Positions 29,991-50,606 of a stretch of DNA of 64,000 bases are shown piece by piece. The notes below the pieces were generated by a model. It worked only from the letters and a program-made list of their open reading frames with translations. It had not been told where the DNA came from and did no database searches. Both the position numbers and the translations under genes were made by a program. Source of the stretch: Fibrobacterota bacterium (lineage in GTDB: Bacteria; Fibrobacterota; Fibrobacteria; UBA5070); NCBI GenBank assembly GCA_029557215.1, contig JAKPQQ010000222.1, forward strand, positions 18,481 to 82,480, read 5' to 3'. Within the stretch, counting starts at the first letter, position 1, and every line of letters begins with the position of its first letter.

Positions 29991-29999
29991 GGAGGCGAG

Positions 30000-32900
30000 A
30001 TGCCCGCGATGGAAATCGACGAAACCCTGCAACTGTTCCTCGAGGAGGCGCGCGACCACCTGCGCGACATCGAGACGGATCTGCTCGCGATCGAGACGGA
30101 AACCGGCCCCGCCGACGTGGATCTGGTCAACAAGGTCTTCCGCGGCATCCACTCCATCAAGGGTGCGGCCGGGTTCTTCGGACTGAACCGGATCAAGGAG
30201 CTCTCCCACTCCATGGAGAACCTCCTGAACCGCATCCGCAACCTGGAGGTGGTTCCCGGCCGGACGGCCATCGAGGCCCTCCTGAAGTCGGCGGACGTCC
30301 TCAGTTCGATGGTGGAGGATCCCTCGCGAAGCGAAGACGTCGAGATCGGACGCCTGCTGGAACTCCTGCGCGACGCCAACGCGACGCGCTCCAAGGCATC
30401 CGCGACGGTCGACATCCCCGATCCCCAGGGACGCGTGATCTTCCGCATCCCGGAAGACGACCTCGAACTGGCCCGCAAGGGCGGGAAGAACCTCTTCGTG
30501 ATGTTCTTCGACATGGTCAAGGACATCGACGCCAAGGGGATGCATCCGCTGGGCCTGGTGAAGGAACTGGAGAAGACAGGCCTGATCGTCGAATCGCGCG
30601 TGGCCCACGACGCCGACGGGAACCTCCTGGGCGATGCGGGGTTCGTCCCGTTCCACGTGTTCTACGCGACCGTGCTCGACCACGAGATGACCTGCCTTCT
30701 CACCGGACTCCCCCCGTCCAGCGTGGTGGCCTTCGACGGAGAGCGCAAACCCGTCGCGGCCGGAAAGCTCGTCGCGGCCGCGAAGAAGGCCGCGCCGAAA
30801 CCTTCCAAACGCGCCAGCCAGGCGGCTCCGCCGCCGGAACGGAAGACCGCGCCATCCACTCCGGTCGCGGATCCCGTCGTGACGGAATCCGACAAACCGG
30901 AACCGGAGGCGATCCCGGCCGGGGCGACGCCGCGGGGCGCGGCGCAGGGGAACACCTCGCCGTCGTCGCTTCGCGTGAACGTGAAGTCGCTGGATCGCCT
31001 GATGACCCTGGCCGGCGAACTCGTCCTTTCCAGGAACCAGCTGGTCCAGAAGGTGGGCTCGAAGAACATCGCCGAGATCCAGGCCAGCTCCCAGGGCCTG
31101 TCCCTCATCATCTCCGAGCTGCAGGAGGCGGTGATGAGCACGCGCATGCAGCCGCTCTCGATGGTGTTCGGGAAGTTCCAGCGCGTCGTGCGGGATCTCG
31201 CCCAGGACCTCGGCAAGGAGATCCGCCTGGAAGTGGAAGGCGAGGACGTCGAACTCGACAAGGCGGTCATCGAATCGATCGGCGACCCGTTGACGCATCT
31301 TGTCCGCAACGCCGTGGACCACGGCATCGAGATGCCGGAGATCCGGGAACGCTCGGGCAAGCCCCGCCAGGCCGTGGTCAAGCTCCACGCCTACCACGAG
31401 GCGGGCAAGGTGGTGATCGACGTCTCCGACGACGGACGCGGCATCGACACCGACGCGGTGCGGGAAAAGGCCGCCGCGCAGAAGCTCGTGGACCCGCAGC
31501 ACCTGGCGAACATGACCGAGAAGGAGCTGGTCAACCTGATCTTCCTTCCGGGATTCTCCACCGCGAAGGTCGTCACCGACATCTCCGGACGCGGCGTCGG
31601 GATGGACGTCGTCAAGACCAACTTCACCAAGCTCGGCGGCGTCATCGACATCGAAAGCCGCCAAGGCCGGGGAACCAGGATCCGCGTCAAGCTCCCGCTC
31701 ACGCTGGCCATCATCCCGAGCCTTCTGGTTTCGGTCCAGGACGAGACCTACGCGATCCCGCAGGTGAACCTGGTGGAGCTGGTGCGCATCCCGGCCAAAG
31801 ACGTGCGCAACCGGATCGAGCGGATCGGGGACGCGCTCGTCATGCGACTCCGCGGCCACCTGCTCCCGCTGCTGAAGCTCTCGCAGGTGCTGGGGATCGC
31901 GACCCCCACCTTCGTCCACCCCGAATCCGGGGAACAGAAACCGGACCGGCGCACGCGCGTCGACGACCGGCGCGGCCCCCGGGAACGCGAGACTCCGGAA
32001 GAAAAGGAACGCCGCCGCAACGCGGACCGACGCTACCACTCCGAGAGCGCGATCAACATCGCGGTCCTGTCGGCCGGGACGTTCCAGTACGGACTGATCG
32101 TGGACCGCCTCCACGAGTCGGAAGAGATCGTCGTGAAACCGCTGGGAAGCCACTTCCGCAACTGTTCCTGCTACGCCGGAGCCACCATCCTGGGCGACGG
32201 CCGGGTCTCGCTGATCCTGGACGTGGTCGGCGTCACCCGGTACATGAACCTGTCGGACGTGGCCGGATCGGACAGGAGCCGCGACGAGGAGTCGAGGCAC
32301 AGACAGAAACTGCGCGACGCGCAGTCGATGCTGCTGTTCCGCGTCGCCGAACACGAGCAGTTCGCGGTCCCGCTCTCGCTGGTCTCGCGGCTGGAGGTGA
32401 TCCCGCGCGCATCCATCGAGAAGATCGGCGGCCGCAGGACCATCCAGTACCGAGGCGGCAGCCTGCCGCTGCTGGAACTGTCGGAGGTGTCGCAGGTGCA
32501 CCCCCTCCCCGACCAGGACGAGTACTTCGTGGTGGTCTACGCGGTGGGCGGCAAGGAAGTGGGCCTGATCGTGTCGCGGATCGTCGACATCGTCGAAGCC
32601 TCGGTGGAGTTCGACGAGTCCACGTTCGCGCAACCCGGGATCATCGGATCGACGATCCTGTCGAACCACACCACGCTCCTGGTGGATCTCTACGACGTGG
32701 TCAAGACCAGCCTCCCCGGCCTGGTCAAGGCGCCGGAGCTGGACGCGGGAAGGACCGGAAAGGTCCTCGTGGTCGACGATTCGCCGTTCTACAGGCGCCA
32801 GATCGCGGGATACCTCAAGGAGTGCGGGCTCGAGGTGGTCGAAGCCGTCAACGGCGACGAGGCGCTCGCCCTGCTGGAAACGACCGGCGGGATCGGGCTC

Positions 32901-33131
32901 GTCCTCACCGACGTGGAAATGCCCGTCATGGACGGACTGGAACTGACCCGGCGCGTCCGTTCCATCGAGTCCCTGCGCCACCTCCCCGTGGTGGCCATCA
33001 CCTCGCTGTCCGGGGAAGAGGCCGAACGCCGCGGGCGCGAGGCGGGGGTCGACGGCTACCTGGTCAAGCTCGACCGCGAAAAGATCCTCGCCGAAGTCGA
33101 AAAACTCCTCCTGCGCAGGGGGCACCGATGA
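30000..33131 (+). CDS. cheA: Chemotaxis histidine kinase CheA with two CheW-like domains and a C-terminal receiver (CheA-CheY hybrid)
   Basis: 1043 aa; P1 Hpt (FRGIHSIKGAAGFFG), P3/P4 (HLVRNAVDHGIE, DDGRGID, GRGVGMDVVK), two CheW-like blocks, REC (VLVVDDSPFYRR..TDVEMPVMDG). Confidence 0.9.
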   Translation: MPAMEIDETLQLFLEEARDHLRDIETDLLAIETETGPADVDLVNKVFRGIHSIKGAAGFFGLNRIKELSHSMENLLNRIRNLEVVPGRTAIEALLKSADVLSSMVEDPSRSEDVEIGRLLELLRDANATRSKASATVDIPDPQGRVIFRIPEDDLELARKGGKNLFVMFFDMVKDIDAKGMHPLGLVKELEKTGLIVESRVAHDADGNLLGDAGFVPFHVFYATVLDHEMTCLLTGLPPSSVVAFDGERKPVAAGKLVAAAKKAAPKPSKRASQAAPPPERKTAPSTPVADPVVTESDKPEPEAIPAGATPRGAAQGNTSPSSLRVNVKSLDRLMTLAGELVLSRNQLVQKVGSKNIAEIQASSQGLSLIISELQEAVMSTRMQPLSMVFGKFQRVVRDLAQDLGKEIRLEVEGEDVELDKAVIESIGDPLTHLVRNAVDHGIEMPEIRERSGKPRQAVVKLHAYHEAGKVVIDVSDDGRGIDTDAVREKAAAQKLVDPQHLANMTEKELVNLIFLPGFSTAKVVTDISGRGVGMDVVKTNFTKLGGVIDIESRQGRGTRIRVKLPLTLAIIPSLLVSVQDETYAIPQVNLVELVRIPAKDVRNRIERIGDALVMRLRGHLLPLLKLSQVLGIATPTFVHPESGEQKPDRRTRVDDRRGPRERETPEEKERRRNADRRYHSESAINIAVLSAGTFQYGLIVDRLHESEEIVVKPLGSHFRNCSCYAGATILGDGRVSLILDVVGVTRYMNLSDVAGSDRSRDEESRHRQKLRDAQSMLLFRVAEHEQFAVPLSLVSRLEVIPRASIEKIGGRRTIQYRGGSLPLLELSEVSQVHPLPDQDEYFVVVYAVGGKEVGLIVSRIVDIVEASVEFDESTFAQPGIIGSTILSNHTTLLVDLYDVVKTSLPGLVKAPELDAGRTGKVLVVDDSPFYRRQIAGYLKECGLEVVEAVNGDEALALLETTGGIGLVLTDVEMPVMDGLELTRRVRSIESLRHLPVVAITSLSGEEAERRGREAGVDGYLVKLDREKILAEVEKLLLRRGHR

Positions 33132-33583
33132 CCCAGACGGAAACCGTCGCGAACACCGACAACCTGGAACTCACCGTCTTTTCCGTGGGCGACCTGCTCT
33201 GCGCGCTGCCGAACTCCTCGGTGCGCGAGATCTCGGGATTGCGGTCGATCACCAAGGTCCACCACGCGGCCCCGCAGGTCCGCGGGGTGGTGAACCTTCG
33301 AGGACAGATCATGACCGTCCTGGACCTGGGGATCCGGTTCGGGATCGGCCCGGTTCCCGAAGACCGCAAGGCGCGCATCCTCGTGGTGCGGTCGGGCGAA
33401 GAGGACATCGGGCTTCTCGTGGACGGGGTCGACGACGTGATGAACGCGCCGCGGACCGACCTGGAGCCGCCGCCTTCGAACGTCGGAGGCATTTCGGGAA
33501 GCTACTTCCGGGCGATCCTCAAGAACCGCGACGACCTGGTCTGCCTCCTGGACCTGGACCGGATCCTGTCCGACGGCGACTGA
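33128..33583 (+). CDS. cheW: Chemotaxis coupling protein CheW
   Basis: 151 aa; LTVFSVGDLLCALPNSSVREI..VVNLRGQIMTVLDL; ATGA overlap with cheA. Confidence 0.85.
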   Translation: MTQTETVANTDNLELTVFSVGDLLCALPNSSVREISGLRSITKVHHAAPQVRGVVNLRGQIMTVLDLGIRFGIGPVPEDRKARILVVRSGEEDIGLLVDGVDDVMNAPRTDLEPPPSNVGGISGSYFRAILKNRDDLVCLLDLDRILSDGD

Positions 33584-33604: not shown

Positions 33605-34498
33605 TCAATCCGGACAAGCGACTCCGGTCGGCGGGGAAGGCGCTCGCAGGAAGCGCACGCCGCCCTTCGGGACCTCGCTCTTCGCCTGGTCCGCCCGCGA
33701 CAACAGCCGGTCGCCACCTTCGCCACCGGAATACGTCGTGACGCCGATCGACACGGGAAGTTCCATCCCCGACCGCGCGAAGCCTTCCCGCAGGGCCCGC
33801 TCCACCACGTCCACGCGCTCCTGCGCCGCGCGCTCGTCGGCCCCGAGCCAGAGGATCACGAACTCGCCTTCCCCCCAGCGAAAAAGCCAATCCGAAGGTT
33901 TCGCGCACCCCTGGATCAGGGTCGCGGCCTGGCGCAGCGCTTCGTCGACGGCGACCTTCCCGAAATCGACTCGCATCTTGCGCAGCCCCCCGATTTCCAC
34001 CACGGACAAGGACAGGGGATCCCCGTAGCGATCGCACCTCTGGGATTCGGATTCCAGGGTTTCGGCCAGCAGGAGGCGGTTTCCCACTCCCGTGAGCGTG
34101 TCGGTCCGGGATTGCATCTCGAGTTCCCGATTGCGCTTGCGCAGCACCGACTGGATCTCCTGCAACTCCTGGACGGCCTCCGCGCCGCGCAGAAGTTCGC
34201 GTTCGAGCAGATGGACCCGGCGCAGGCCCAGGCCGCAGATGCACAGCAGCACAACCACGGCGACCTCGAGGACGATCCCGACCGGACCGTGCGACCGGGA
34301 CGCGTCGCCGAACAAGGACGATGCGAGATGGACGACCAGCCCGCCCAGGATCAGCGCAAGGATCGACCATGCGGCGATCCGGGCGACCGAGCGATGCCAA
34401 CGACGCCCTTCGACGCCGGGGTCGAGCGAGCGATCGTTCTCCGTCGCGGAACGCGACAGGCCGGGAACGTTCCGATGGATTTCCAGCACGACATCCAT
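33605..34498 (-). CDS. Membrane-anchored GGDEF diguanylate cyclase
   Basis: 297 aa from internal ATG (M67); TM segments then GGDEF-related RWGEGEFVIL and upstream DTLTGVGNR. Confidence 0.7.
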   Translation of the reverse strand: MDVVLEIHRNVPGLSRSATENDRSLDPGVEGRRWHRSVARIAAWSILALILGGLVVHLASSLFGDASRSHGPVGIVLEVAVVVLLCICGLGLRRVHLLERELLRGAEAVQELQEIQSVLRKRNRELEMQSRTDTLTGVGNRLLLAETLESESQRCDRYGDPLSLSVVEIGGLRKMRVDFGKVAVDEALRQAATLIQGCAKPSDWLFRWGEGEFVILWLGADERAAQERVDVVERALREGFARSGMELPVSIGVTTYSGGEGGDRLLSRADQAKSEVPKGGVRFLRAPSPPTGVACPD

Positions 34499-34589: not shown

Positions 34590-35846
34590 TCAAGGCTTCC
34601 GGAACGCCTCCACCATGGCCCCCAGCTCCGTCCCCAGGCGGGAGAGGACTTCGGACTGCTCGCCGACGAGTCTGGCGTCGCTTTCGATGACCGCAAGCGG
34701 CGCCTGCAATTCGCCGATCACCGATGTCGTTTCGGACAGCTTCAGACCGGATTCGGTGACGACCTCCGAAATCGTGGCGGCCTGTTCGTCCACGAACTTG
34801 ACGTTGGCGGAGATCTCTGCGATGGTTCCTGTCTGCTTGCGGACGCGCTCCTCGATCCCGCGCGACATCCGGTCGACTTCGTCGACCTTCCCGCTGATCC
34901 TCTGCATCGCGTCCACCGCAGAACGCGTGGCCGCCTGGATCGACACCACCATGTCCCGGATCTTCTCGGTGGAACGCGCGGTCTGGCTGGAAAGCTCCTT
35001 GACTTCCCCGGCCACGACGGCGAATCCCTTCCCGGCCTCGCCGGCCCTCGCCGCTTCGATGGTGGCGTTCAAGGCCAACAACCGCGTCCGCGCGGCGATC
35101 GCCTGGATTTCGGAAAGGATCCCTCCGATGGCTTCGGCCTCGCGGCTGAGTCCGACCATCACGTCCGTCGCCGCCCCGGCCTCCTCGCGCGCCTTGCCCG
35201 CCAACTGCACCTCGTCCACGCAGGTGCCGGCGACGTCGGTGAGCGAACGCGCGATCTCGTCGGCCGACGAGGAAAGCATCCCGATGCACGCCGACACGTC
35301 CTGCAGGGAACCCGAGATCCCCGCGAGATCGTTCGACGCCGTTCTCGTGGCCTCCATCACCTTCGCGGAAGTCCGCTCCATGGCCTCGATCTGCTCCGGC
35401 ATCCTGGCGGAAAAACCGGCCAGGTCGTTGGCGGCGGCGGTCAGCGGTTCCGCCCGACCGGCCAGAGGGTCGACCAGCGACTGGAGGCGCCCCATGACCG
35501 TGTTGAAATCGTTGGCGATGGCCACGATGTCGTCGTAGCCCTGGACCTCGATCCGGACCCCGATCCCTCCGCCGTCCGACGCCAGATGACGCAATCTGCC
35601 CGCAATGCCCTCGACGGGCGCCACGGCGCGCGCCACGAGCCTCCAGGTAACGAACCCCGCGAGCCCGGCCACCAGGAGGCTCCAGCCGAACCCCCGCCAG
35701 GACGCCCCCGCGAACAGGAGCACAGCCAGATCAGAAAGCACCAGTCCGGACAGCGCCGGGGCGAGCACGCGCCACCGGAGCCCGATCTTCCTCCGCTCGG
35801 CCTGGAGGCGGATCCACCGCGGATCCCTTTTCCACGACATCGACAT
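34590..35846 (-). CDS. mcp: Methyl-accepting chemotaxis protein (2 TM + HAMP + MA domain)
   Basis: 418 aa; SD ggagg; highly conserved MCP signalling hairpin RTRLLALNATIEAARAGEAGKGFAVVAGEVKELS. Confidence 0.8.
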   Translation of the reverse strand: MSMSWKRDPRWIRLQAERRKIGLRWRVLAPALSGLVLSDLAVLLFAGASWRGFGWSLLVAGLAGFVTWRLVARAVAPVEGIAGRLRHLASDGGGIGVRIEVQGYDDIVAIANDFNTVMGRLQSLVDPLAGRAEPLTAAANDLAGFSARMPEQIEAMERTSAKVMEATRTASNDLAGISGSLQDVSACIGMLSSSADEIARSLTDVAGTCVDEVQLAGKAREEAGAATDVMVGLSREAEAIGGILSEIQAIAARTRLLALNATIEAARAGEAGKGFAVVAGEVKELSSQTARSTEKIRDMVVSIQAATRSAVDAMQRISGKVDEVDRMSRGIEERVRKQTGTIAEISANVKFVDEQAATISEVVTESGLKLSETTSVIGELQAPLAVIESDARLVGEQSEVLSRLGTELGAMVEAFRKP

Positions 35847-35866: not shown

Positions 35867-38266
35867 TCAGGACGCGAAGCGGCTCGGCAATTGGATGATG
35901 GTCTTCGACCCCGATCCCGGCACGCTGGTCAGGCGCAAGGTGCCCCCTTGCGATTCCACGCACTCCTTCACTGCCGACATGCCCACGCCGCGACCCGACA
36001 CGTCGGAAACCGACGATGCGGTCGACACCCCCGCCTCGTAGACGAGCTGGATCTTCTCGTCGTCGGACATCCTGGCGATCTCGGCCGGAGTGGCGACGCC
36101 GTTTTCGACGGCCTTCCTCGCCACCGATTCGACGTTGATGCCTCCGCCGTCGTCGGAAAGCGTGACCGTGACCTGGTCGTCGTTGATCGCGACCTCCAGA
36201 CGGATGGTTCCCCGTTCCGGTTTGCCCTTGGCCGCCCGATCGGAAGGCGACTCGATGCCATGGTCCACGGAGTTCCGCAGCATGTGGATCAAGGCCTCGT
36301 CGATGGGATTGAAGAAATGCGGACTCAGCTCGAGATGGGTCGGAACGACCTCGAAGTGGATCTGCTTGCCCAGCCGCTCGGCCAGGCGCCCGATCATGCC
36401 GCGGTACTTGTCGGCCAGGCGCGCCAACGGCACGTCGCGAAGACGCTCGCAGGCCATCGCCAGGGTCTTGACCGCCTCGGAATCGGCCACCACGGCGCTT
36501 CCGGAATGCATCGCCAACGCCATCCGGCGGACATGCTCGATCTTGCGCTCGGAAATCTGGACCAGGGCGTCGCCCTCCCCACCGCCACCCGACAACCGTT
36601 TTTCCGTTTCCAGGATTTCCTGGTAGGCGGCGTCCATCTCCTCGAGACGTTCGGCCAACGCACCCAAGGTGACGGTGGTCCGCACGGTGATGGGTTCCTT
36701 CAGGTCTTCCAGCAGGTCCTCGCTGTGGTGGGCCAACCTGCCCAGCCGTTCGAATCCGTAGGTGCCCGCGTTGCCCTTGATCGTGTGCAGATCCCGGAAC
36801 AGGCGCCCGATGTCCTCGGGTGACGGCTTGAAACCGGGACCGTCGGGGAACTTCTCCCGCGCCGCCGTCGCGCGGTCGAGCATCGATTTGGCGAGGTCGG
36901 TGAGGTCGTCCAGACGCTTGCGGGCGTCCTTCTGGAAATCCTTGATGACCTCGGGCAGGTTGTTCACCAGGCCCAGGATGGTCTTCACCTCGTTCTCGTG
37001 GCGCTCCTTCTCTTCGGCGACCACGCGTTCGATGCGCCTCGCCTCGGTCTCGTCCTGCGCCAGGACCATGATCTTCTCGACGTCGCGGTTCTTGTCGTAC
37101 ATGCGCTGGTAGCGCACGCGCACGTAGCGGGTCTGGCCGTCGGCGCCCGGGATTTCCAGATCCTGCACCGGAGCGACCTTGGTCAGCTTGTCCCAGCGCA
37201 TGGCCGCGTGCTTGGAACGGACCAGGTTGAGCCAGCCCACGAAGTCCTCTTCCTGCGAAGGGCTCAGATGCAGGGCGTCGCGGATCGACTGGAGTTCGTT
37301 GACCCCGAGGATCTCAGGAGCGGCCTTGGAGTGTTCCGGACTGATGTTGCCGTCGAACCCCACGACGAACAATCCCTGCTCGACGTTGTCCAGGATGTCG
37401 CGCACCTGGCGCATCTTGGCTTCCACGAGCTCTTCCAGGTGCTCGGTGTAGGTCTGCACGGTCTGGCGCATCGTCTCGAAGGTGGACGCGAGCTCCCCGA
37501 TCTCGTCGTCGGAATGCACGACCACGGGCTGCTTGTAGTCGCCGTTCTTGATGATCTCCGCCGCCGCCGCCAGTTCGCGGATCGGACGCGACAGGTTCGC
37601 CGCCTCGCTTCCGAACTTGCGAAGCGAGATGAGCAGGGCTCCGGTTCCCAGCGCAACCAGGAGGACGATCACCAGCGCGGTCCCCTTGCGGCTGCCGTCC
37701 TTCGCGGCCTGGATCGCCTCGCGCATGGTCGCGGTGGACAACTTGTACAGGATCCATCCCATGGGCGCTTCGGGATCGCCCACCGGGGCCGCGAACTCGA
37801 GAAGTTCGTCGGACACCCCGACGGTCCTGCGCGACTCGATGGCCTCGAGGGAACGGGCCCACACGATCGCCGGATCCCCGAGTTCCTCGGCCTTCGCCAG
37901 GATGCCGGCCATGCGGACGGAATCCGTCTCGTCGGCCGTCGCCCAGGGCATGGAGGAATCCGCCATGATGAAGGTCCCGGACACCACGTCGATGTCGTCC
38001 TTCACGGTGGACGCCACCAGATCCTTGATCTGCATGAACGCGTTGCCTTCCGCCATCCCCACCAGCGCCTGGGCGTTGTTGGCGGTCAACAGCCTCCCCT
38101 TGGCCTTGAGGGACGATTCGATCCGCATCACGGTCTCGCGCTGCGTCTTCCCGCCGAGGAACACGTTGAGGATCACCACCGCCAACGTGACGAGCACGAA
38201 GGCGGGCACGAGAACCATCAGCGATGTCTTGACCAGTTTTCCCTGGATTGTCGTTCGCGCGGCCAT
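35867..38266 (-). CDS. Membrane-bound sensor with periplasmic domain, HAMP, PAS-like region, Hpt and CheA-type ATPase (P4) but no CheW-like P5 domain
   Basis: 799 aa; SD ggagga; TM1 LMVLVPAFVLVTLAVVIL, TM2 ALVIVLLVALGTGALLI; Hpt motif FRDLHTIKGNAGTYGFERL; CheA P4 signature HMLRNSVDHGIE..DDGGGI..VSGRGVGMSAVKE; protein ends immediately after the ATPase. Confidence 0.75.
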   Translation of the reverse strand: MAARTTIQGKLVKTSLMVLVPAFVLVTLAVVILNVFLGGKTQRETVMRIESSLKAKGRLLTANNAQALVGMAEGNAFMQIKDLVASTVKDDIDVVSGTFIMADSSMPWATADETDSVRMAGILAKAEELGDPAIVWARSLEAIESRRTVGVSDELLEFAAPVGDPEAPMGWILYKLSTATMREAIQAAKDGSRKGTALVIVLLVALGTGALLISLRKFGSEAANLSRPIRELAAAAEIIKNGDYKQPVVVHSDDEIGELASTFETMRQTVQTYTEHLEELVEAKMRQVRDILDNVEQGLFVVGFDGNISPEHSKAAPEILGVNELQSIRDALHLSPSQEEDFVGWLNLVRSKHAAMRWDKLTKVAPVQDLEIPGADGQTRYVRVRYQRMYDKNRDVEKIMVLAQDETEARRIERVVAEEKERHENEVKTILGLVNNLPEVIKDFQKDARKRLDDLTDLAKSMLDRATAAREKFPDGPGFKPSPEDIGRLFRDLHTIKGNAGTYGFERLGRLAHHSEDLLEDLKEPITVRTTVTLGALAERLEEMDAAYQEILETEKRLSGGGGEGDALVQISERKIEHVRRMALAMHSGSAVVADSEAVKTLAMACERLRDVPLARLADKYRGMIGRLAERLGKQIHFEVVPTHLELSPHFFNPIDEALIHMLRNSVDHGIESPSDRAAKGKPERGTIRLEVAINDDQVTVTLSDDGGGINVESVARKAVENGVATPAEIARMSDDEKIQLVYEAGVSTASSVSDVSGRGVGMSAVKECVESQGGTLRLTSVPGSGSKTIIQLPSRFAS

Positions 38267-38302: not shown

Positions 38303-39277
38303 CTACTCGAGAACCTTGTCGACTTCGCCCAGCTTGTCCTGCTGGACTCCGCAGCACGACTTCATGCCGCGGAGGTTCAGGGTCTTGATCACCGACAACG
38401 GCTGGTCGACCTTGGGATCCTCGACCTTCCAGCCCGCGTCCTCGATCTCCTGGACCAGCCCCGCGGCCTGCGCCCCGAGGGCGTAGTTGTCGGGAAGCAC
38501 CGCGAACGTCCCGAACTTGAGCTCGGGCTTCACGAGGCTTTCCACGCCCACCACGACCGGATGCTTCCAACCGGAAAGCCGGGGCAGCCAGACCTCCTTG
38601 ACCAGTTTCGCGTTGAGGAAGAAATTGTCGTTGATCACCAGGAGCACGTCGATGTCGGAACGCTTGGTCAGTTCCTTCAGGGCGTCGTTGAGCGCGGATT
38701 TGGCGTCGGCGTCGTCCGGAACCCTGATCCCCACGATCTCCACGTTCTCCTGGGCGCAGAATTCGGCGTTCTTGCGGATCATGTCGTCCATGGACGCCCT
38801 GTGGACCACGCCGATCTTCTTGATCGGATTGGACAGGAGCGAACGCAGGTTCACGATCGTCGTCACCGCCGGGATCTCGTAGTTGATCCCCACGACGTTC
38901 TGCACGTCCCGGATGGTCGCGTCGATCCGCACCCCCATGAGGGCGACTCCCGGCGTGACGGAATCCGACATCTTGACGCGGGCGTCCTTGAACAGCGCGA
39001 CACCGCGGTTGTCCATGGCGACCACGACCTTGGGTGCGGCCTCCTTCCAGGCCTTCTGCACTTCTTCGACGGAGGTTTCCTTGGTGACGACGAGCCCCTT
39101 GAGGTCGTATCCGTCGCCGAGCGTCTCCTGGATGCCCTTCTTGGCGTCGTCGAACGACGGGCCGGCCGGGTGCAGCACGAGGATCCGTTTCGATTCATCC
39201 TGGCCGAAGGCCGCCGCGCCCAGGAAAGCCGTGGCGACCGCGACGATCCAGGTCGGTGCGTGTTTCACTTGATCCAT
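38303..39277 (-). CDS. Periplasmic solute-binding-like protein (ABC-type uncharacterised transport system periplasmic component, COG2984-like)
   Basis: 324 aa; signal peptide MDQVKHAPTWIVAVATAFLGAAAFGQ; alpha/beta SBP-like fold signature. Confidence 0.55.
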   Translation of the reverse strand: MDQVKHAPTWIVAVATAFLGAAAFGQDESKRILVLHPAGPSFDDAKKGIQETLGDGYDLKGLVVTKETSVEEVQKAWKEAAPKVVVAMDNRGVALFKDARVKMSDSVTPGVALMGVRIDATIRDVQNVVGINYEIPAVTTIVNLRSLLSNPIKKIGVVHRASMDDMIRKNAEFCAQENVEIVGIRVPDDADAKSALNDALKELTKRSDIDVLLVINDNFFLNAKLVKEVWLPRLSGWKHPVVVGVESLVKPELKFGTFAVLPDNYALGAQAAGLVQEIEDAGWKVEDPKVDQPLSVIKTLNLRGMKSCCGVQQDKLGEVDKVLE

Positions 39278-39951
39278 GAGTCCACCCCCAGCATCTTCTT
39301 CTCGGCGGTACCGAGCGTCTTGAGCGCGGCTTCCAGCTTCGAGGCGTCGCCCTTGGCCGATGCGACCAGCAAGCCGATCTTGCCGTTGGCCACGTCGGTG
39401 GTCTGGAGCGCGGCCTGCGAACGTCCCTTGATCTCGTCGACCTGCCCTTCGCCCACCAGGATCGCGTCGGCCGACCCGAAGGTCAGGAGCGGAAGCAGGT
39501 CCTCCACCTTGGTCACGATCTTGAGCTTGGGCTGCGATCCCACCACGCTCTTGACGTAGCCGTTCATGGCGGGGCGTTCCAATACGCCCACCACGCCCAC
39601 GTTCGCCGTGGCCAGCGCGTCGGCCACCACCGGTTTGGTGGAGATCAGCACAGCCGGCTCCAAGGCGCCGCCGTTGCGGGCCCCCTTCAGGAAGACCTTG
39701 AAGTCCGGGAACTGCTCGGCCAGGGCCTTCGGGGCGAGGATCGCGTCGGGCGGGGTCTGCTTGATCATCGTGGTGAAATCGGCGAGGCGTCCGAACACCG
39801 TCACTTCGTGGCCGGACAGCTTCGCCTGGAGCGCGGCCTGGACCACGTTCGGCTTGGCCATGCTCGGGAAGAACACGTAGATCTTGTCCGCCGAGGTCTG
39901 GGCGGCGAGGAACGCCGCGGCAAGCCAGGGTACGGCTCGATGGAGTTTCAT
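39265..39951 (-). CDS. Periplasmic binding-protein-like protein (PhnD/SsuA-like)
   Basis: 228 aa; signal peptide MKLHRAVPWLAAAFLAAQTSA; overlaps the downstream SBP gene by 13 nt. Confidence 0.5.
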   Translation of the reverse strand: MKLHRAVPWLAAAFLAAQTSADKIYVFFPSMAKPNVVQAALQAKLSGHEVTVFGRLADFTTMIKQTPPDAILAPKALAEQFPDFKVFLKGARNGGALEPAVLISTKPVVADALATANVGVVGVLERPAMNGYVKSVVGSQPKLKIVTKVEDLLPLLTFGSADAILVGEGQVDEIKGRSQAALQTTDVANGKIGLLVASAKGDASKLEAALKTLGTAEKKMLGVDSWIK

Positions 39952-42071
39952 GCATCGACCTCCGAATAGATGAACCGGGTTGACGGAACCGCCGCGGACA
40001 GCGGCATCCGTATGACGAACGACGAACCTTTGCCGGACACGGTCTTCACGTGGATCGTGCCGCCCAGGCTCGACAACGCGTCCTTGACCATGTCCAACCC
40101 CACTCCGCGACCGGAGAATTCCCCGACCTTTTCGCGCGTGGTGAATCCCGCGAGGAACATGAAATCCAGGACTTCCTCGTCGCGGGCGAGCGCGGCCTTG
40201 GACTTGTCGATGAGCCCCTTCTCGACGGCCTTGTTCCGGACTGCCTCGAGGTCGATGCCCCGACCGTCGTCGGAGAACACGAGTTCCAGCCGGTCCTTGA
40301 TCCGCTTGTATTCCAACGTGACGATTCCCGTCTCGAGCTTGCCCGCGGCCACGCGCTCCTGGGGCTTTTCCAGACCGTGGTCCAGCGAGTTGTTGACCAG
40401 GTGGACCAGGCAGCGATGCAGGACCCGCAGGACCTCGACATCGATGGCTCCGGATCCGACCAGCGAAAACGAGGCCTTCTTCCCCAGGCGGGTGGCCGTC
40501 TTGCCGATCACGGACTGCAAGGTCCTGCCCAACCGCGCGACGTCCACTTCCTTCAATGCGGCCGCCGAGGCCGCCGCCGCCGCCAGCATCGAAAGCGTCG
40601 CCGGGTTCCAGCCGAGGTTCCGCCCGGCTTCGTGGACGCCCCACACGGACGCGGCCACGCTCTCGATGTCGGAAATCTGGGCCATCACCGCGGGAGCGTT
40701 GCGCACCACCTTCTCGTCGAGCTTCTCGTCCCTCTGTCCGAGCTTGCCCCGCAGTTCCTCCAGGCGCCGGACGTAGCCTTCGGCCTCCTCGATCCCCTTG
40801 CGGATCTTCTGGAACTCCTCCTCCTCGCCGTCGCCCGTCTCCCATTCTTCCTGGTCGCGGAGCTTGGCGATGTCGTTCTCGATCTCCAATGCCAGATTCT
40901 GGAGCCCCTTGAACTGGAACTGGCCGGAATTGCCCTTGAGCGTGTGCACGGCCCGGTACAGCGTGTCGATGAACTTGCGGTCGCGGTTGGCGGTCTCCAC
41001 GATGTTCTCGGCTTCCTTGAGAAGACCGGAACTGTCGTAGACGAAATCCTGGATCTCGTCGGGTTCCAGGTTCACGATCTGGCTCATCAGCTCCATGTTC
41101 TCCTCGTGGAGACGCGAGAGCTTCTTCATCTCCGATTCCACGCGCCGATTTTCCGTCACGTCCTCGACGATGAGCATCAGGCCGTCCAGCTTTCCGTCGT
41201 CGGAGAGCAGAGGGATCCACTCCGGCCGCACCACCACGCCTCGGCAGTTCAGCGCCTCGGAGATGGGACTCAAGCCGACCATGTCCTTGAACGGGAGCAG
41301 CCCCCACTTGTCGTACACGACCTCCAGCCACTTGTCCATGTCGGACACGCGCGCCGGATCGAACCCGAGCATCTCCACGACGTGCATCCCGGGCACCTGG
41401 GTGTCCTTGTCGAGACCCACCGTCTCCGGGGTCTTGCGCCCGAATCCCGGACGGATCCTGCCGTGGCGGTCCACCGTGACCAGTCCGGAAGGGAATGATT
41501 CGAGCATCGAGGCCACGGATCGCTTGGCCGCCGACGCTTCGCGCGCGGATTCGCCCAGCGCCTGGATCACGGCCTGCAGCCGTTCCCCCAGCTCCAGTCC
41601 CATCATGTTCAGCACGAAGAAGCAGTCCACGTCGCCGACCTCGCCCTTGAGCGTGATCTTGCCGGCGGGGACCTCCGGATATTCCAGTTCGCCGTAGATG
41701 ACCACGGGAGGAAGGAAGGTCAAGGCGTCGAAATCCTTCTCGAGCCCGGGGATCGCCTGCCCCACGGAGGTGTTCAAGGCCTCCTTGAGGAATCCGCCGA
41801 AGTCGCCACGCATGGACTTCAAGTCGTCGGCGCCCATGCCGTCCGACCAGGCGCCGATCATCCTGGCCGCGGTCTCCTCGGTCATGGAGACGGCGTATTC
41901 GCCCTGGATCGCCCCGGTGAAGTGGATCATCACGGCCATTCCGCGGTCGGGCGAGAACTTCGCCTGGCACAGCGTGGATTCGTCGGGGACCATCTCGCAT
42001 CCGACCATGTCGCGGATGTTCCCGCACACGCCGGCCGCGAATTGTCCGACATATTCCGTCAATGCAGTCAT
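39948..42071 (-). CDS. Cytoplasmic CheX-like domain + PAS + Hpt + CheA-type ATPase kinase (no P5)
   Basis: 707 aa from ATG M146; N-terminal CheX-like block (MIHFTGAIQGEYAVSM), Hpt LYRAVHTLKGNSGQFQF, P4 HLVNNSLDHGLE..DDGRGID..FSGRGVGLDMVKD. Confidence 0.7.
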   Translation of the reverse strand: MTALTEYVGQFAAGVCGNIRDMVGCEMVPDESTLCQAKFSPDRGMAVMIHFTGAIQGEYAVSMTEETAARMIGAWSDGMGADDLKSMRGDFGGFLKEALNTSVGQAIPGLEKDFDALTFLPPVVIYGELEYPEVPAGKITLKGEVGDVDCFFVLNMMGLELGERLQAVIQALGESAREASAAKRSVASMLESFPSGLVTVDRHGRIRPGFGRKTPETVGLDKDTQVPGMHVVEMLGFDPARVSDMDKWLEVVYDKWGLLPFKDMVGLSPISEALNCRGVVVRPEWIPLLSDDGKLDGLMLIVEDVTENRRVESEMKKLSRLHEENMELMSQIVNLEPDEIQDFVYDSSGLLKEAENIVETANRDRKFIDTLYRAVHTLKGNSGQFQFKGLQNLALEIENDIAKLRDQEEWETGDGEEEEFQKIRKGIEEAEGYVRRLEELRGKLGQRDEKLDEKVVRNAPAVMAQISDIESVAASVWGVHEAGRNLGWNPATLSMLAAAAASAAALKEVDVARLGRTLQSVIGKTATRLGKKASFSLVGSGAIDVEVLRVLHRCLVHLVNNSLDHGLEKPQERVAAGKLETGIVTLEYKRIKDRLELVFSDDGRGIDLEAVRNKAVEKGLIDKSKAALARDEEVLDFMFLAGFTTREKVGEFSGRGVGLDMVKDALSSLGGTIHVKTVSGKGSSFVIRMPLSAAVPSTRFIYSEVDA

Positions 42072-42094
42072 TGGACGCTCCGGGACCTGGGTGG

Positions 42095-42475
42095 TCAGTT
42101 GAAGACTTCGTCGACCGATTGCTTGAAGTCTTCCACGAACAGGGGGTCGGAGAACTTGAGGGGTTTTTCCACGTAGCCCTTGGCGCCGCGGTTCAGGCAT
42201 TCCAGCACCGTGTTCCCCTTGACCGCCGAGATGACCATGATCCGCGCGTCGGCGAACTCGGTGAGGATCTCGTTGATCGCGGTCTTGCCGTCCTTGTTGG
42301 GCATGGTGAGGTCCATGGTGACAAGATCCGGCTTGTGCTTGCGGTAGAGATCCACTGCCTCGTTGCCGTCCTTGCCGATCGCCACGACCTGGAAACCCAG
42401 TTGGGAGGTGAAGAACTCGGCGATCTGCTTCGACAGGAAGCTGGAATCGTCCACGATCAGGACCGTCTTGGGCAT
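42095..42475 (-). CDS. CheY-like single-domain response regulator
   Basis: 126 aa from ATG M8 (SD aggagg); VLIVDDS..LVTMDLTMPNKDG..GYVEKPL. Confidence 0.85.
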   Translation of the reverse strand: MPKTVLIVDDSSFLSKQIAEFFTSQLGFQVVAIGKDGNEAVDLYRKHKPDLVTMDLTMPNKDGKTAINEILTEFADARIMVISAVKGNTVLECLNRGAKGYVEKPLKFSDPLFVEDFKQSVDEVFN

Positions 42476-42594
42476 TGTTCCTCCTTCGGGCCGCACGGGC
42501 GCACAACTAGAGAGTCTGGATGATCCTACCGCTTGAAATCGAGGGAAGTCAAGGGGTAAGATGTCCGAAGCATCGCCTTTTCCTGGAGGACGGG

Positions 42595-43083
42595 ATGGAC
42601 ATCGACATCGGAGAACTGCTCACCACCATGCGCGCGAAAGCCTGCGAAGCGTTCAGCAGCGTGCTCCAGATCGAGCTCGTTCCGGAAGAGCCGTGGAACA
42701 TCGTGAACCGAGTGGAGAACCCGTGCGATTTCGGCGCCACCGTGGGCTTCGCCAACGAGGCGTGGCAGGGGGCGTGCACCCTGGGCGTCTCCAGCGCCGA
42801 CGCCGCGATCCTCTTCCCCAACCTGGACGAGGACATGCTCTTCGACGCGCTCGGCGAGATCGGCAACACCGTCTGCGGACTTCTGTCCGCAGACCCGCAG
42901 TTCACCGCCCTGTACGGAATCCTGGAGCAGACCCCGCCGCTGTTTTCGCGAGGCGGCGCCTGGCTCGCGCGATCCACCGGAGTCCAGGGGAAGCTCGCCC
43001 TGGGCGAGGCGCGCGTCATCTTCGGATGCACCGTGCGCACCACCGGACCGCGCCGGAACATGGTGGGTTCGCAACCGCGCTGA
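42595..43083 (+). CDS. cheX: CheX-family chemotaxis phosphatase-like protein
   Basis: 162 aa from ATG M26 (SD ggagga); DIDIGELLTTMRAKACEAFSSVLQIEL..GATVGFANEAWQGACTL resembles CheC/CheX. Confidence 0.6.
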   Translation: MDIDIGELLTTMRAKACEAFSSVLQIELVPEEPWNIVNRVENPCDFGATVGFANEAWQGACTLGVSSADAAILFPNLDEDMLFDALGEIGNTVCGLLSADPQFTALYGILEQTPPLFSRGGAWLARSTGVQGKLALGEARVIFGCTVRTTGPRRNMVGSQPR

Positions 43084-47210: not shown

Positions 47211-49643
47211 TCAGGCGCCCAGTTCGCGCTTGACGCTTTCCGACGAAGGGAACCCGCCCTGGGCGAGTTCTTCGGGACGCCCGGCGAACAACACCCGGCC
47301 GCCTTCGCGCCCCGGCCCGGGCCCGAGCTCCACCACGTGGTCGCAACGCGAGGCGAGAACCGGATCGTGGGTGATGGCCACAACGGTGTCGCCGGAGGCC
47401 AACAGGTCGTCGAACACCGACCCCAGCTTCAGCGTGTCCAGAGGGTGGAGCCCTCGCGAAGGCTCGTCCAGGATCCAGAGTGTGCGCTTGCGCGAGCCCG
47501 CTCCGCCGACCGCCGACGCCAAGCGCAGGCGCAAGGCTTCGCCGCCCGAAAGCGAATCCGATCTCCGGCCCGGCGACAGATGCCCCAGTCCCGCCGCGCA
47601 AAGGCGCCCCAGCAATCCCCCCAGCTTGGCGTGGTTCGCGAACAATCCGCGCGCGGCTTCCAGGTCCAGGTCCAGCACATCGGCGATGGACAAGCCCTTC
47701 CAGCGCACGGACAGCGTCTGGGCGTCGAACCGGGCTCCGTTGCAGCGCGAACACGGCGTCCAGGCGTCGGGCAGCAGGTGCAACACCACCTTCTCCTCGC
47801 CGATGCCTCCGCAGGTCTCGCAACGCCCGCCCTTGGCGTTGGGGGAAAACCGCGAGGCGGTCCAGCCGCGCACCTTGGAATCGGGCAGGGCGGCGTAGAG
47901 CGTGCGCAAGTCGTCGAGCATGCCGGACAGCGTCGCCACGGTCGATCGCGGCGAGCGGACCCATTCCCCGCCCGGCTCGACCACCGCCACGTCGTGCAGT
48001 TCGCCTTCCACCGAAATCGAGGCGAACGGAAGGGGGTCGCCGCTCCCCGACAATTTCCGCTTCAAGGCCGGGGCCAAGGTGTCCAGCACCAGGGAACTCT
48101 TGCCCGCGCCGGAAACGCCCGTCACCGTCGTGAAGCACCCCAGCGGGATCTCCACGTCGGCCTCGCGCAGATTCCGTCCACATGCGCCCCGCAGGACCAC
48201 GCGCCCCTTCGCGGCCAGGCGAGGCCGCGCGGGCGGGCGGGCGGCACCCGAAAGCCACTTCCCCGACGGCGTGGGGGCCGCGGCCATCGCCGACGGCGAT
48301 CCCGCGTAGAGGATCCTTCCACCCGCGCGTCCGGGCCCCGGACCGGTCTCGATCACCGCGTCGCTTCGATCCAACGACCTCAGGTCGTGCTCCACCACCA
48401 CCAGGGTGGCGCCCTGGTCGCGCAGGCGGGAGAGCAGGGCGTGGACGGGCGGCAGATCGCGGGGATGCAATCCCGTGGTCGGCTCGTCCAGCACGTAGGC
48501 CAGCCCCGAAAGCGGTGCACCCACCAGCGCACCCAGACGGGCGCGACGTTCTTCCCCCTGCGACAACGACTCGGCCGGGCGTCCCAGCGGCAGGTAACCC
48601 AGCCCGAGGTCGTCGAGGACTTCGGCCCGCCGACGGATCTCGTCGACCAGTTCGGCGCAAGGCCCCTGCGCGAGCGACTCCCACTCCGAACCCTCCAGCG
48701 TCGCGCGGACTTCCGCCACATCGCGCCCCGAAAGATCGACAAGCGAAACCCCGCCGATCCGGAACCATCCGGCTTCTTCGCGCAGACCGGATCCCGCGCA
48801 GGCGGAGCACGGCACCGCGCCATCCGCCCCGGCGCCCTTGCAGACAGGGCAATGCCCCTGGACGCTGCGGCGCGAGAACAGGGACGGCGTGGGGCGCGGG
48901 GCGGTTCGGCCCGTGGCCAGGCAGCGCGGAACCCCCGAGACGGAAATCGTCTTTTCCGATCCGGGCTCCCCGATCTCCAGCGAACAAAGATCGCCACCCA
49001 ACCGGTAGGCGGTCAGGACCGCCTCGGCCAAGCGCACGGCATGGCGTTCCTGGGCTCGCAACCGATCGACCACGATCCGCAGGCCGTCCAGCGGCGCATC
49101 GGGATCCAGCCGTTCCAGCTCCAGCGATTCGCGCCCGAGGGCGCCACGCACGAACCCTCTGCGCACCCACGGCCCGGGACAGGTTTCGTCGGGCCGGAAC
49201 AGGATCCGGACCTTCTCGTCCGGCGCCTCGCGAAGAACCTTCTCGGCCACTTCCGGCGCCGACAACCCTTCCATCCGCTCTCCGGTGGCCGGAGAAACCG
49301 GCACGGAAGCGGCTGCCCACAGCGCGACCAGCGGCTCGTGCAGCCCCGCCAGGCTCGACAGCGTCGCCCACGGCCCGGACTCCGACGTTTCCTGTCGCAA
49401 GGCCGCGGTGGGAACCAGCCCCGTGGCGGCGTCCATGGGGGGGCGCGCCATGGCGTCGGACAGGCTCCGCCTCCACGCGGGCAGGGTGGAAAGCCATCTG
49501 CGCTCGGCCTCGGCGTGGAGCGTGTGGAACACGAGACTCGTCTTCCCGGATCCCGAAACCCCGCAGACGGAGGTCCACTTCCCGATCCCGAACTCGGCGT
49601 CGACGGATGCCAGGTTGTGGGTCCGGACGCCGCGCAGCCTCAT
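47211..49643 (-). CDS. UvrA2-like (class II UvrA paralog) ABC ATPase lacking the canonical UvrB-binding region
   Basis: 810 aa from ATG M170 of ORF 47211..50150 (the N-terminal 169 codons overlap the upstream RR gene in another frame); VRTHNLASVD..GVSGSGKTSL, two ABC signatures (LSQGEERRARL, LSGGEALRLRL), zinc fingers CPVCKGAG..CSACAGSG and CETCGGIG..CSRCNGARF; N-terminal module strongly diverged. Confidence 0.8.
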   Translation of the reverse strand: MRLRGVRTHNLASVDAEFGIGKWTSVCGVSGSGKTSLVFHTLHAEAERRWLSTLPAWRRSLSDAMARPPMDAATGLVPTAALRQETSESGPWATLSSLAGLHEPLVALWAAASVPVSPATGERMEGLSAPEVAEKVLREAPDEKVRILFRPDETCPGPWVRRGFVRGALGRESLELERLDPDAPLDGLRIVVDRLRAQERHAVRLAEAVLTAYRLGGDLCSLEIGEPGSEKTISVSGVPRCLATGRTAPRPTPSLFSRRSVQGHCPVCKGAGADGAVPCSACAGSGLREEAGWFRIGGVSLVDLSGRDVAEVRATLEGSEWESLAQGPCAELVDEIRRRAEVLDDLGLGYLPLGRPAESLSQGEERRARLGALVGAPLSGLAYVLDEPTTGLHPRDLPPVHALLSRLRDQGATLVVVEHDLRSLDRSDAVIETGPGPGRAGGRILYAGSPSAMAAAPTPSGKWLSGAARPPARPRLAAKGRVVLRGACGRNLREADVEIPLGCFTTVTGVSGAGKSSLVLDTLAPALKRKLSGSGDPLPFASISVEGELHDVAVVEPGGEWVRSPRSTVATLSGMLDDLRTLYAALPDSKVRGWTASRFSPNAKGGRCETCGGIGEEKVVLHLLPDAWTPCSRCNGARFDAQTLSVRWKGLSIADVLDLDLEAARGLFANHAKLGGLLGRLCAAGLGHLSPGRRSDSLSGGEALRLRLASAVGGAGSRKRTLWILDEPSRGLHPLDTLKLGSVFDDLLASGDTVVAITHDPVLASRCDHVVELGPGPGREGGRVLFAGRPEELAQGGFPSSESVKRELGA

Positions 49644-49648
49644 TGGAA

Positions 49649-50023
49649 TCAGTTCTTGGCGTCCAGGAGCTTGCGGACCCGGCGGACGAGATCGGGGCGA
49701 TCGAACGGCTTGGTGATGTAGTCGGCCGCGCCCATCACGTGCAGCCCCACCATCAGGTCGATCGGCTTGTTCCTGCTGGTCAGGAACACGAACGGCACCG
49801 CGGCCAGATCCGGGAGCTCGCGCAGGGCGCGGAACACCTGGTGGCCGTCCATCCCCGGCATGACGAGATCCGTCAACACCAGCTCGGGCGCGAACTCCTT
49901 GGCGACCTCCACGGCCATTTCCGGAGCCAGTTCCACCCTGACCTCGTGTCCATCGGACTCGAGGACCAGGCGGATCACGTTGGCCATGTCCTCTTCGTCG
50001 TCCACAACCAGGATGCGAGCCAC
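49649..50023 (-). CDS. CheY-like single-domain response regulator
   Basis: 124 aa; GTG start with SD gggagg 5 nt upstream; ILVVDDEEDM..LVLTDLVMPGMDG..DYITKPF; stop lies 3 nt before the UvrA2-like ATG. Confidence 0.8.
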   Translation of the reverse strand: MARILVVDDEEDMANVIRLVLESDGHEVRVELAPEMAVEVAKEFAPELVLTDLVMPGMDGHQVFRALRELPDLAAVPFVFLTSRNKPIDLMVGLHVMGAADYITKPFDRPDLVRRVRKLLDAKN

Positions 50024-50334: not shown

Positions 50335-50606
50335 CGTTCGGGTCCCATCATGACGAACCACAACCAGAAGACGCCCACGGACAGGACGACGGCCCCGCCC
50401 AGTCCGACGAGATCGGCCACGAGCGAAGGAACACCCGGCAGATGCGCCAGGATCTGTCCGGCCAGGCCCAGCCCGGCGCCCACGGCCAGAAGCCATCCGC
50501 GCGTGCTTTCCCCGAACTTGCGCCGGTAGAACACGCCGATCGCCACTCCCACCAGGGCGAGCGACGAGAGCACGGCTGCCGCCAGGATGGAAATCGCGGC
50601 GATCAT
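50331..50606 (-). CDS. Small hydrophobic membrane protein (3 predicted TM)
   Basis: 91 aa; MIAAISILAAAVLSSLALVGVAIGVF...; ATGA overlap with the KaiC-like gene stop. Confidence 0.45.
   Translation of the reverse strand: MIAAISILAAAVLSSLALVGVAIGVFYRRKFGESTRGWLLAVGAGLGLAGQILAHLPGVPSLVADLVGLGGAVVLSVGVFWLWFVMMGPER

Follow-up and report, generated by a model that had tools for sequence, protein, structure and literature searches.

What does a histidine kinase with a CheA-type core do when a CheX-family phosphatase domain stands at its N terminus, a membrane-bound paralogue and two secreted binding proteins are encoded beside it, and it carries no CheW domain? This question is raised by a locus in a 64,000-nucleotide stretch of DNA, here called the window, from a Fibrobacterota bacterium (GenBank assembly GCA_029557215.1, contig JAKPQQ010000222.1, positions 18,481 to 82,480 of the forward strand). 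A sequence-only reading of the region had described it as an alternative chemosensory module, and its interpretation is supported in essence: the five genes that it named all exist, on the strands and at or near the positions that it gave. The kinase, receiver, and fused-CheX parts of that description stand, and the stand-alone protein is a probable CheX; a chemosensory role in the sense of a pathway from methyl-accepting chemotaxis protein (MCP) through CheW to CheA is not established, as the CheW (P5) domain is absent. We hold with moderate confidence that the locus is a conserved Fibrobacterota signaling cassette built on CheA-type cores that acts without chemoreceptor arrays, through the mechanism proposed below.

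Two kinases with CheA-type catalytic cores

The kinase that we call HK-C (39948..42071, minus strand; 707 aa) is predicted to be cytoplasmic, with no hydrophobic segment by hydropathy, and to consist of CheX-like, PAS-like, Hpt, possibly P3-like, and ATP-binding elements in that order. Pfam models detect CheX at residues 46-133 (29.1 bits against a gathering cut-off of 27), Hpt at residues 341-408 (31.8 bits), and HATPase_c at residues 550-692 (59.2 bits), as well as a weak match to the tail of PAS_4 (E=0.0033). A profile of the first 172 residues, built from 20 homologues, gave significant matches in the PDB exclusively to CheX structures (1xko/1squ, E=5.7e-5; 3hzh, E=8e-3). Glu97 and Asn100 of HK-C align on Glu96 and Asn99 of Thermotoga maritima CheX, and the Pro-Pro that follows aligns on the equivalent Pro-Pro; the two T. 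maritima residues are reportedly catalytic (Park, 2004; Pazy, 2010). Across an alignment of 37 homologues, K96, E97, L99, N100, and G104 of the CheX domain are invariant; the same holds for the Hpt histidine H376 and for the nucleotide-binding boxes N, G1, F, and G2.

The AlphaFold2 (AF2) model of HK-C has a mean predicted local distance difference test score (pLDDT) of 82 and a predicted TM-score (pTM) of 0.39, so that its individual domains are reliable and their arrangement relative to one another is not. Residues 1-155 (41607..42071, minus strand) form a confident α/β domain in this model (block pLDDT mostly 75-92), with a helix, three strands, helices, and three further strands, and Glu97 and Asn100 lie within a predicted helix spanning residues 88-113. 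Judged by Pfam, profile, and model, residues 1-155 constitute a CheX-like domain with an intact Glu-x2-Asn active site, and the CheX/CheC-like N terminus proposed in the sequence-only reading is borne out. A linker helix leads to the PAS-like domain (residues 195-305; 41157..41489, minus strand), which is modeled with mixed strands and helices at a pLDDT of ~88-93. The P1-like Hpt domain (residues 337-444; 40740..41063, minus strand) is a predicted four-helix bundle (helices 337-359, 365-384, 388-405, and 415-444) with the phospho-acceptor H376 in the motif HTLKGNSGQF. It is followed by a helical hairpin (residues 466-505; 40557..40676, minus strand), possibly a P3-like dimerization element, and by the P4-like, CheA-type ATP-binding domain (residues 530-700; 39972..40484, minus strand).

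Full-length homologues of HK-C make up 51 clusters in the protein database (688-713 aa, 38-95% identity), all of them from metagenomes or metagenome-assembled genomes (MAGs) labelled Fibrobacterota or Fibrobacteria. Some carry the Joint Genome Institute (JGI) pipeline label 'signal transduction histidine kinase/CheY-specific phosphatase CheX'. When genome contigs were scanned with the HK-C alignment, on generic CheA P4 motifs, the matches listed were only ordinary CheA genes from unrelated phyla, with no orthologues among them.

The membrane kinase HK-M (35867..38266, minus strand; 799 aa) begins with a first transmembrane segment (residues ~14-38), a ~155-aa periplasmic domain, and a second transmembrane segment (residues ~197-219), both segments being seen by hydropathy, and continues with HAMP, PAS-like, Hpt, and ATPase domains. 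Pfam matches cover HAMP, Hpt (46.8 bits), and HATPase_c. Alignment of the two kinases extends over 558 aa at E=1e-55 and 28% identity; it starts at the linker helix and takes in the PAS, Hpt, and ATPase domains. HK-C and HK-M are paralogues whose difference is confined to the N-terminal input module, a CheX domain in HK-C versus a membrane sensor with HAMP in HK-M.

Structural comparison places the catalytic core of HK-C closest to CheA. Foldseek matches the predicted model best with 4xiv, which comprises P3P4 of T. maritima CheA (TM-score 0.72, 32% identity), with 247 alignment columns on a 250-residue target that cover the hairpin 466-505 as well as P4; many CheA P4 structures come next, and identities among the top hits span 31-39%. 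The P4-like domain shares 34-39% identity with CheA P4 structures 1i58 and 6mi6 (target-normalized TM-scores 0.87-0.92) and 37% with the window's own CheA, whose P4 domain is matched by hhalign at E=3e-35; NCBIfam CheA models also match partially over the P4 region of the kinase. Coverage of the hairpin in the model alignment suggests a P3-like dimerization element. Pfam H-kinase_dim was not detected in HK-C, and the hhalign alignment with the neighboring CheA begins only at the P4 boundary.

Both kinases end straight after the ATPase domain, and neither gave a Pfam match to CheW (P5) at E≤0.01; in the same scan, the genuine CheA of the window (30000..33131) scored 121 bits for CheW. A survey of CheA proteins found Hpt, dimerization, kinase, and CheW domains in all CheAs, with the CheW-like P5 domain in 100% of those surveyed and HATPase_c plus CheW as the defining pair (PMC10542144). 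Because P5 was found in neither protein, we do not class HK-C and HK-M as CheA proteins; by their domain content they are CheA-like at the level of P1 and P4. The term CheA-type used in the sequence-only reading thus holds for the Hpt and ATP-binding domains and not for the proteins as wholes.

The gene REC (42095..42475, minus strand; 126 aa) encodes a single-domain CheY-like receiver, as had been proposed, with a Response_reg match of 76.5 bits and the residues D9/D10, D53, S82, and K104 all present. Among NCBIfam models it comes closest to those of the CheB receiver domain and of CheY, in each case under the cut-off.

Transcribed divergently is a small gene for a stand-alone CheX-like protein (42595..43083, plus strand; 162 aa). 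Its open reading frame opens at 42520; homologues begin at the methionine of MDIDIGELL, which moves the start to 42595, and the gene and strand are as described. In the PDB, a profile of six sequences comes closest to T. maritima CheX (1xko), at a marginal E=0.043, and hhalign against the HK-C CheX profile gave E=0.0029 at a probability of 11%; the CheX alignments are all in register. Compared on its own with the HK-C CheX profile, the single sequence was uninformative, and the six-sequence profile reached only these marginal values. The residues D109-x3-E113-x2-N116-x22-P139 are invariant in the six homologues, a spacing that matches the CheC/CheX/FliY active-site consensus D/S-x3-E-x2-N-x22-P. 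The protein is probably a highly divergent CheX and is the weakest element of the cassette.

A conserved cassette with two secreted binding proteins

The genes on the minus strand form one tight operon. At a G+C content of ~66%, spurious frames crowd raw lists of open reading frames in the window; third-position G+C and frame analysis leave one clean minus-strand series running from ~42500 down to 33600. Its transcription order is REC, HK-C, SBP2, SBP1, HK-M, and then the accessory genes for an MCP and a GGDEF protein. The SBP1 and SBP2 frames share exactly 13 nt, the SBP2 start codon and the HK-C stop codon overlap as ATGA, and the remaining gaps in the series measure 20-90 nt. Between positions 33000 and 43900 there are just two σ70-like matches (minus strand, 42552->42523; plus strand, 42533->42562), where shuffled sequence leads one to expect 0.7; these are consensus matches only. 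Both lie inside the 120-nt divergent intergenic region (42476..42594), which holds candidate promoters for both transcription units. The operon assignment follows from the overlapping and closely spaced genes together with the restriction of promoter-like sites to this region. No Rfam family matched between 30000 and 46000. The sequence-only reading had placed the binding-protein genes downstream of the membrane kinase; the adjacency is correct, and in transcription order they lie upstream of it.

We retrieved the surroundings of progressively less similar homologues and searched eight window proteins against the six resulting loci (L001, L002, L083, L084, L085, and L087). All six core genes (REC, HK-C, SBP2, SBP1, HK-M, and the CheX-like gene) are present in six of the six, at 24-94% identity. 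REC is the most conserved (55-94%), and the binding proteins are the least conserved members (SBP2, 24-72%; SBP1, 25-60%); the identities are 38-67% for HK-C, 38-65% for HK-M, and 29-80% for the stand-alone CheX-like protein. Two gene orders occur, REC, HK-C, SBP2, SBP1, HK-M, or REC, HK-C, HK-M, SBP2, SBP1, CheX-like, and in every locus the binding-protein genes lie between or beside both kinase genes. Since the full set recurs in each of these loci, the arrangement is not due to chance; co-occurrence across genomes had been put forward as a check in the sequence-only reading, and it is there.

One related locus, L083, lies in a 5.84-Mb Fibrobacterota MAG (CP064986.1), where the cassette adjoins a canonical chemosensory cluster as it does in the window; the flank shown contains CheR and an Hpt protein, with no CheB there. 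The cassette lies away from che genes in L001, L084, and L087. In L001 a second single-domain receiver gene (15199-15600, plus strand) comes straight after HK-M, which hints that in some lineages the two kinases may have separate receiver partners. A gene for a CheX-GGDEF protein adjoins the cassette in L002 (15843-16880, minus strand).

SBP2 (39265..39951, minus strand; 228 aa) and SBP1 (38303..39277, minus strand; 324 aa) both begin with a short basic-then-hydrophobic segment resembling a signal peptide, in agreement with the two overlapping, signal-peptide-bearing binding proteins that the sequence-only reading had described. SBP2 has no family match in Pfam or NCBIfam. Its AF2 model (pLDDT 93) gave 837 Foldseek matches in the PDB at E≤0.001, and the best 50 are all binding-protein or Venus-flytrap (VFT) domains; matches include the sterol transporter 7t1m, PtxB, BvgS VFT2, and AioX/ArrX, with E values down to 4e-11 and TM-scores of 0.6-0.70. 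By this model SBP2, which has 78 clusters of homologues, is predicted to be a type II periplasmic binding protein of the PhnD/PtxB/AioX-like kind, with a two-lobe α/β fold. Its best sequence-level PDB match, a homing endonuclease (E=0.005), was judged to be due to chance. Conservation in SBP2 is highest at residues 148-161, in the helix motif VTKVEDLLPLLTF, with nine residues invariant in 34 homologues. This motif has more the look of a contact surface for another protein than of a ligand pocket.

SBP1 itself has no direct Pfam match. Nine of 32 aligned members of its family match PF04392 (ABC_sub_bind; best E=7.5e-10), and the family profile finds COG2984-type binding proteins as its best, weak PDB matches (3lft, E=0.009; 8wxm and 5z6v, E ~0.01; and 6k1w). 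Homologues at 32-35% identity bear the JGI/NCBI name 'ABC-type uncharacterized transport system substrate-binding protein'. Through this transitive link to PF04392, SBP1 appears to be distantly ABC_sub_bind-like. The protein and its inspected close homologues share a C-terminal tail, ...NLRGMKSCCG(V/I)Q...(V/I)DK(V/I)LE, whose two adjacent cysteines are unusual for a periplasmic binding protein.

Neither binding protein has a transporter beside it. The sequence-only reading had named membership in an ATP-binding cassette (ABC) transporter as a point to check, and no ABC permease or transport ATPase genes were found in the 64-kb window, where the sole ABC_tran matches are two UvrA-like proteins, or beside the cassette in any of the six related loci. 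In a distant kinase homologue (P0115), PF04392 is fused to PAS-Hpt-HATPase_c in a single chain.

Gene neighborhood of the cassette

Two accessory genes complete the operon. The MCP (34590..35846, minus strand; 418 aa) has two transmembrane helices separated by a loop of ~6 residues, followed by HAMP and MCPsignal domains, and no periplasmic ligand-binding domain. Its orthologue follows HK-M only in L083 (14067-15365) and L085 (16171-17307), that is, in three of seven loci including the window; because only two of the six other loci have it, we place it outside the conserved core. The kinases that adjoin this MCP lack P5, the domain needed for coupling to MCPs. The GGDEF protein (33605..34498, minus strand; 297 aa), encoded by the final gene of the series, has two transmembrane helices, a coiled coil, and a GGDEF domain (77.8 bits in Pfam), and its gene has an orthologue in none of the six other loci. 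The possibility that it carries a CheX or receiver N terminus, like the neighbor in L002, was rejected on account of its transmembrane helices and coiled coil.

Converging on the operon is a canonical chemosensory cluster (24814-33583, plus strand) with genes for CheB, a receiver protein, an HDOD protein, a REC-SpoIIE (PP2C) protein, a STAS protein, a CheA-CheW-REC hybrid (30000-33131), and CheW (33143-33583); its PP2C and STAS pair suggests a partner-switching output. The window also contains FlgF/FlgG-like flagellar rod genes, a CotH-family kinase gene between these and cheB, and a flagellin gene (20683-22263, plus strand; 23037-24545, minus strand; 53933-54856, plus strand). The rod and flagellin genes show that the DNA comes from a flagellated lineage of Fibrobacterota.

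Farther away, two large UvrA-like ABC ATPase proteins are encoded at 1978-7368 (plus strand) and 47211-50150 (minus strand); one is 1796 aa long, with an apparently duplicated UvrA architecture that includes UvrA_inter and UvrA DNA-binding domains. Other signaling genes are plentiful in the window; they encode a receiver protein, two hybrid HisKA kinases, a PAS-GGDEF-EAL protein, a Ser/Thr protein kinase, and a KaiC-like ATPase (1215-2111, minus; 7462-9765, plus; 11027-13534, minus; 14981-16651, minus; 50603-51916, minus; and 58116-60548, minus strand).

Proposed mechanism, competing readings, and significance

From the observed gene content, domain architecture, catalytic-residue conservation, kinase paralogy, six-gene synteny, and absence of transporter genes, we infer a route by which periplasmic ligands may reach a cellular output. 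SBP1 and SBP2, with no transporter partner nearby, would bind periplasmic ligands and dock on the ~155-residue periplasmic domain of HK-M. HK-M would relay the signal via HAMP and its PAS-like domain to the CheA-type ATP-binding domain, which would phosphorylate the protein's own Hpt histidine. HK-C, through its PAS-like domain, may also autophosphorylate on its Hpt histidine and pass the phosphate on. From Hpt the phosphoryl group would move to Asp53 of the adjacent REC, which would be the common substrate of the two kinases. The CheX domain of HK-C would then remove the phosphate from REC, supplying the dephosphorylation that Hpt-based kinases lack, and the divergent CheX-like protein would probably be a second phosphatase acting on REC.

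Hpt-based kinases such as CheA are not known to dephosphorylate their receiver, unlike HisKA kinases, and cells normally use separate phosphatases or phosphate sinks for this step. Because Hpt-type kinases are without the intrinsic phosphatase activity of HisKA kinases, the fused CheX domain would make HK-C bifunctional, and we regard it as most likely a combined kinase and receiver-phosphate phosphatase.

The distribution of the CheX-like domain beyond the cassette bears directly on this assignment. We searched 1.84 billion representative proteins with the HK-C CheX-domain profile and obtained 293 clusters at E≤1e-3, of which 211 also pass E≤1e-10. The match lies at or near the N terminus (residues ~5-175) in all but one of the best 150 clusters, which comprise six of the HK-C family, ~35 short proteins, which may be fragments or stand-alone CheX-like proteins, and 108 multi-domain proteins. 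We scanned these 108 with Pfam, 70 of them being 278-500 aa long and 38 longer. The CheX-like domain is followed by GGDEF in 26 of the 70, by a HisKA/HATPase_c kinase in 18-24 of the 70 and in 21 of the 38 longer proteins (many of these with receiver domains), by a SpoIIE phosphatase in 10, and by an Hpt-HATPase_c kinase like that of HK-C in nine of the 38, three of which have CheW. Some true CheAs also carry the domain. Throughout the fusion alignments, conservation of the catalytic Glu and Asn is complete or >90%.

Several of these observations weigh against the reading that we favor. The N-terminal placement of this CheX-like subfamily on GGDEF proteins, HisKA-type kinases, and SpoIIE proteins is typical of an input domain, and it is not explained by a need of Hpt-type kinases for a phosphatase. 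The stand-alone CheX-like protein falls under the Pfam CheX threshold (17.9 bits against 27). The P3-like element comes from a structural alignment of a predicted model and not from sequence, the inter-domain geometry of that model is unreliable at a pTM of 0.39, and the MCP and GGDEF genes of the operon are not conserved across the other loci.

The chief competing explanation makes the CheX-like domain of HK-C first of all an input module: it would recognize a phosphorylated receiver, REC or another, and switch the attached kinase on or off in a feedback loop or a cascade, with dephosphorylation secondary or absent. The N terminus is the usual place of sensor modules, and GGDEF, HisKA, SpoIIE, and Hpt kinase modules all follow the domain; HisKA kinases already have phosphatase activity and would not need a fused phosphatase; CheX in HK-C occupies the exact position that the transmembrane sensor and HAMP occupy in its paralogue; and a CheX-GGDEF gene stands beside the cassette in L002. 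The conservation of Glu and Asn in the fusions speaks the other way, since pure binding would not obviously require them, although these residues also insert into the receiver active site. We judge a primarily sensory domain to be somewhat improbable as the explanation of HK-C, and the sensory and phosphatase roles can coexist.

We consider it rather unlikely that the cassette serves ordinary chemotaxis, with its kinases recruited to arrays via the MCP and the neighboring CheA and CheW and with REC as the motor-binding CheY. Such a role would account for the CheA/CheW cluster beside the cassette in the window and in L083, the flagellar genes in the window, the MCP after HK-M in three of seven loci, the resemblance of REC to CheY and CheB receivers, and the presence of CheX phosphatases, which are typical of chemotaxis. 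It is difficult to reconcile with kinases that both lack CheW/P5, the element that couples CheA to arrays (PMC10542144), with a six-gene core that has no CheW, with cassettes away from che genes in L001, L084, and L087, and with an HK-M that has its own transmembrane sensor and HAMP. That SBP1 and SBP2 instead serve an ABC transporter encoded elsewhere and sit among kinase genes incidentally is highly improbable, even though SBP1 is a distant member of a family whose name refers to ABC transport and many binding proteins serve both transport and signaling (PMC8050422), because their genes are kept with both kinase genes in seven loci (24-72% identity, two gene orders), overlap in a translationally coupled manner in the window, and have no permease or transport ATPase gene nearby, and because the P0115 kinase carries a fused PF04392.

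The favored reading, a signaling cassette that acts without arrays, can be set beside known systems at the level of its modules. Computational work by Berry, Andrianova, and Zhulin described CheC/CheX fusions to F1-class CheAs in Leptospirae and proposed for them a dual kinase and phosphatase role toward CheY (PMC10542144); a kinase with a built-in phosphatase domain is therefore unusual, as the sequence-only reading had said, and not unprecedented. Like those proteins, HK-C joins a CheX-family phosphatase domain, Hpt, and a CheA-type ATP-binding domain in one polypeptide. The Leptospirae fusions are true CheAs with dimerization and CheW/P5 domains that sit in receptor arrays, whereas HK-C has a PAS-like domain and no CheW and, unlike them, is accompanied by a paralogue that has a membrane sensor and by two binding proteins.

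Free CheX proteins, such as those of T. maritima (1XKO) and Borrelia burgdorferi (3HZH), share with the domain described here profile similarity over ~120 residues, the Glu-x2-Asn helix, and the Pro-Pro strand. Known CheX proteins are free and ~155 aa long, whereas here one copy is a kinase N-terminal domain and the free copy is highly divergent and below threshold. In Rhodobacter (Cereibacter) sphaeroides, CheA3, which has been studied by experiment, is reportedly bifunctional (Porter et al., 2008, cited in PMC10542144), delivering phosphate to CheY through Hpt and removing it by a built-in phosphatase region, and is said to work with the complementary paralogue CheA4 from the same operon. 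The present kinases resemble that pair in combining a kinase that has a predicted built-in phosphatase region with a second paralogue encoded in one operon; the phosphatase region of CheA3 is not known to be a CheX domain, and CheA3 and CheA4 are said to keep CheW and to belong to a cytoplasmic receptor cluster without binding proteins.

Sensor kinases that depend on binding proteins include AioX-AioS, TorT-TorS, LuxP-LuxQ, and ChvE-VirA (reviewed in PMC8050422). As in systems of the AioX-AioS type, a binding-protein gene adjoins that of a membrane kinase with a periplasmic domain and has no cognate transporter genes beside it (seven loci), and SBP2 resembles the sensor-kinase partners AioX and ArrX in structure. 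AioS-type kinases are of the HisKA type and use one binding protein, whereas the cassette has a CheA-type Hpt/ATPase core, two unrelated binding proteins, and a second, soluble kinase. Legionella Lpl0330 was considered as a precedent for an Hpt-type kinase and dropped, as it is described as having an atypical HisKA-like region. The cassette is thus a rare, conserved, uncharacterized variant assembled from known modules and not a new kind of system. In the open-access literature we found no relevant description of CheX-GGDEF proteins, of 'CheX-like' proteins, of P5-less HAMP-Hpt kinases, or of this cassette; other literature may differ.

More speculatively, the cassette may represent a class of signaling pathway in its own right, in which three propositions hold jointly, a reading that we regard as possible but doubtful: that CheA-core kinases are gated directly by binding proteins and not by MCP/CheW arrays; that HK-M and HK-C form one heteromeric kinase/phosphatase switch acting on a CheY-like protein; and that the CheX-like domain has so far gone unrecognized as a widespread N-terminal module, one that reads and resets phosphorylated receivers and connects them, across many bacteria, with kinases, diguanylate cyclases, and PP2C phosphatases.

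A kinase with its own CheX would restore the one-to-one coupling of kinase and phosphatase that is thought to make classical bifunctional sensor kinases robust. By using the CheA catalytic core outside receptor arrays, together with a transmembrane sensor of its own and two binding proteins that have no transporter beside them, the cassette of these uncultured Fibrobacterota would make the boundary between chemosensory and two-component systems less sharp. The occurrence of the CheX-like domain at the head of GGDEF, HisKA-kinase, and PP2C proteins hints at a general wiring of phosphorylated receivers into other pathways. This wider pattern of fusions may matter more than the cassette itself, and interest in the finding would rise if the domain proves to be a general reader of phosphorylated receivers.

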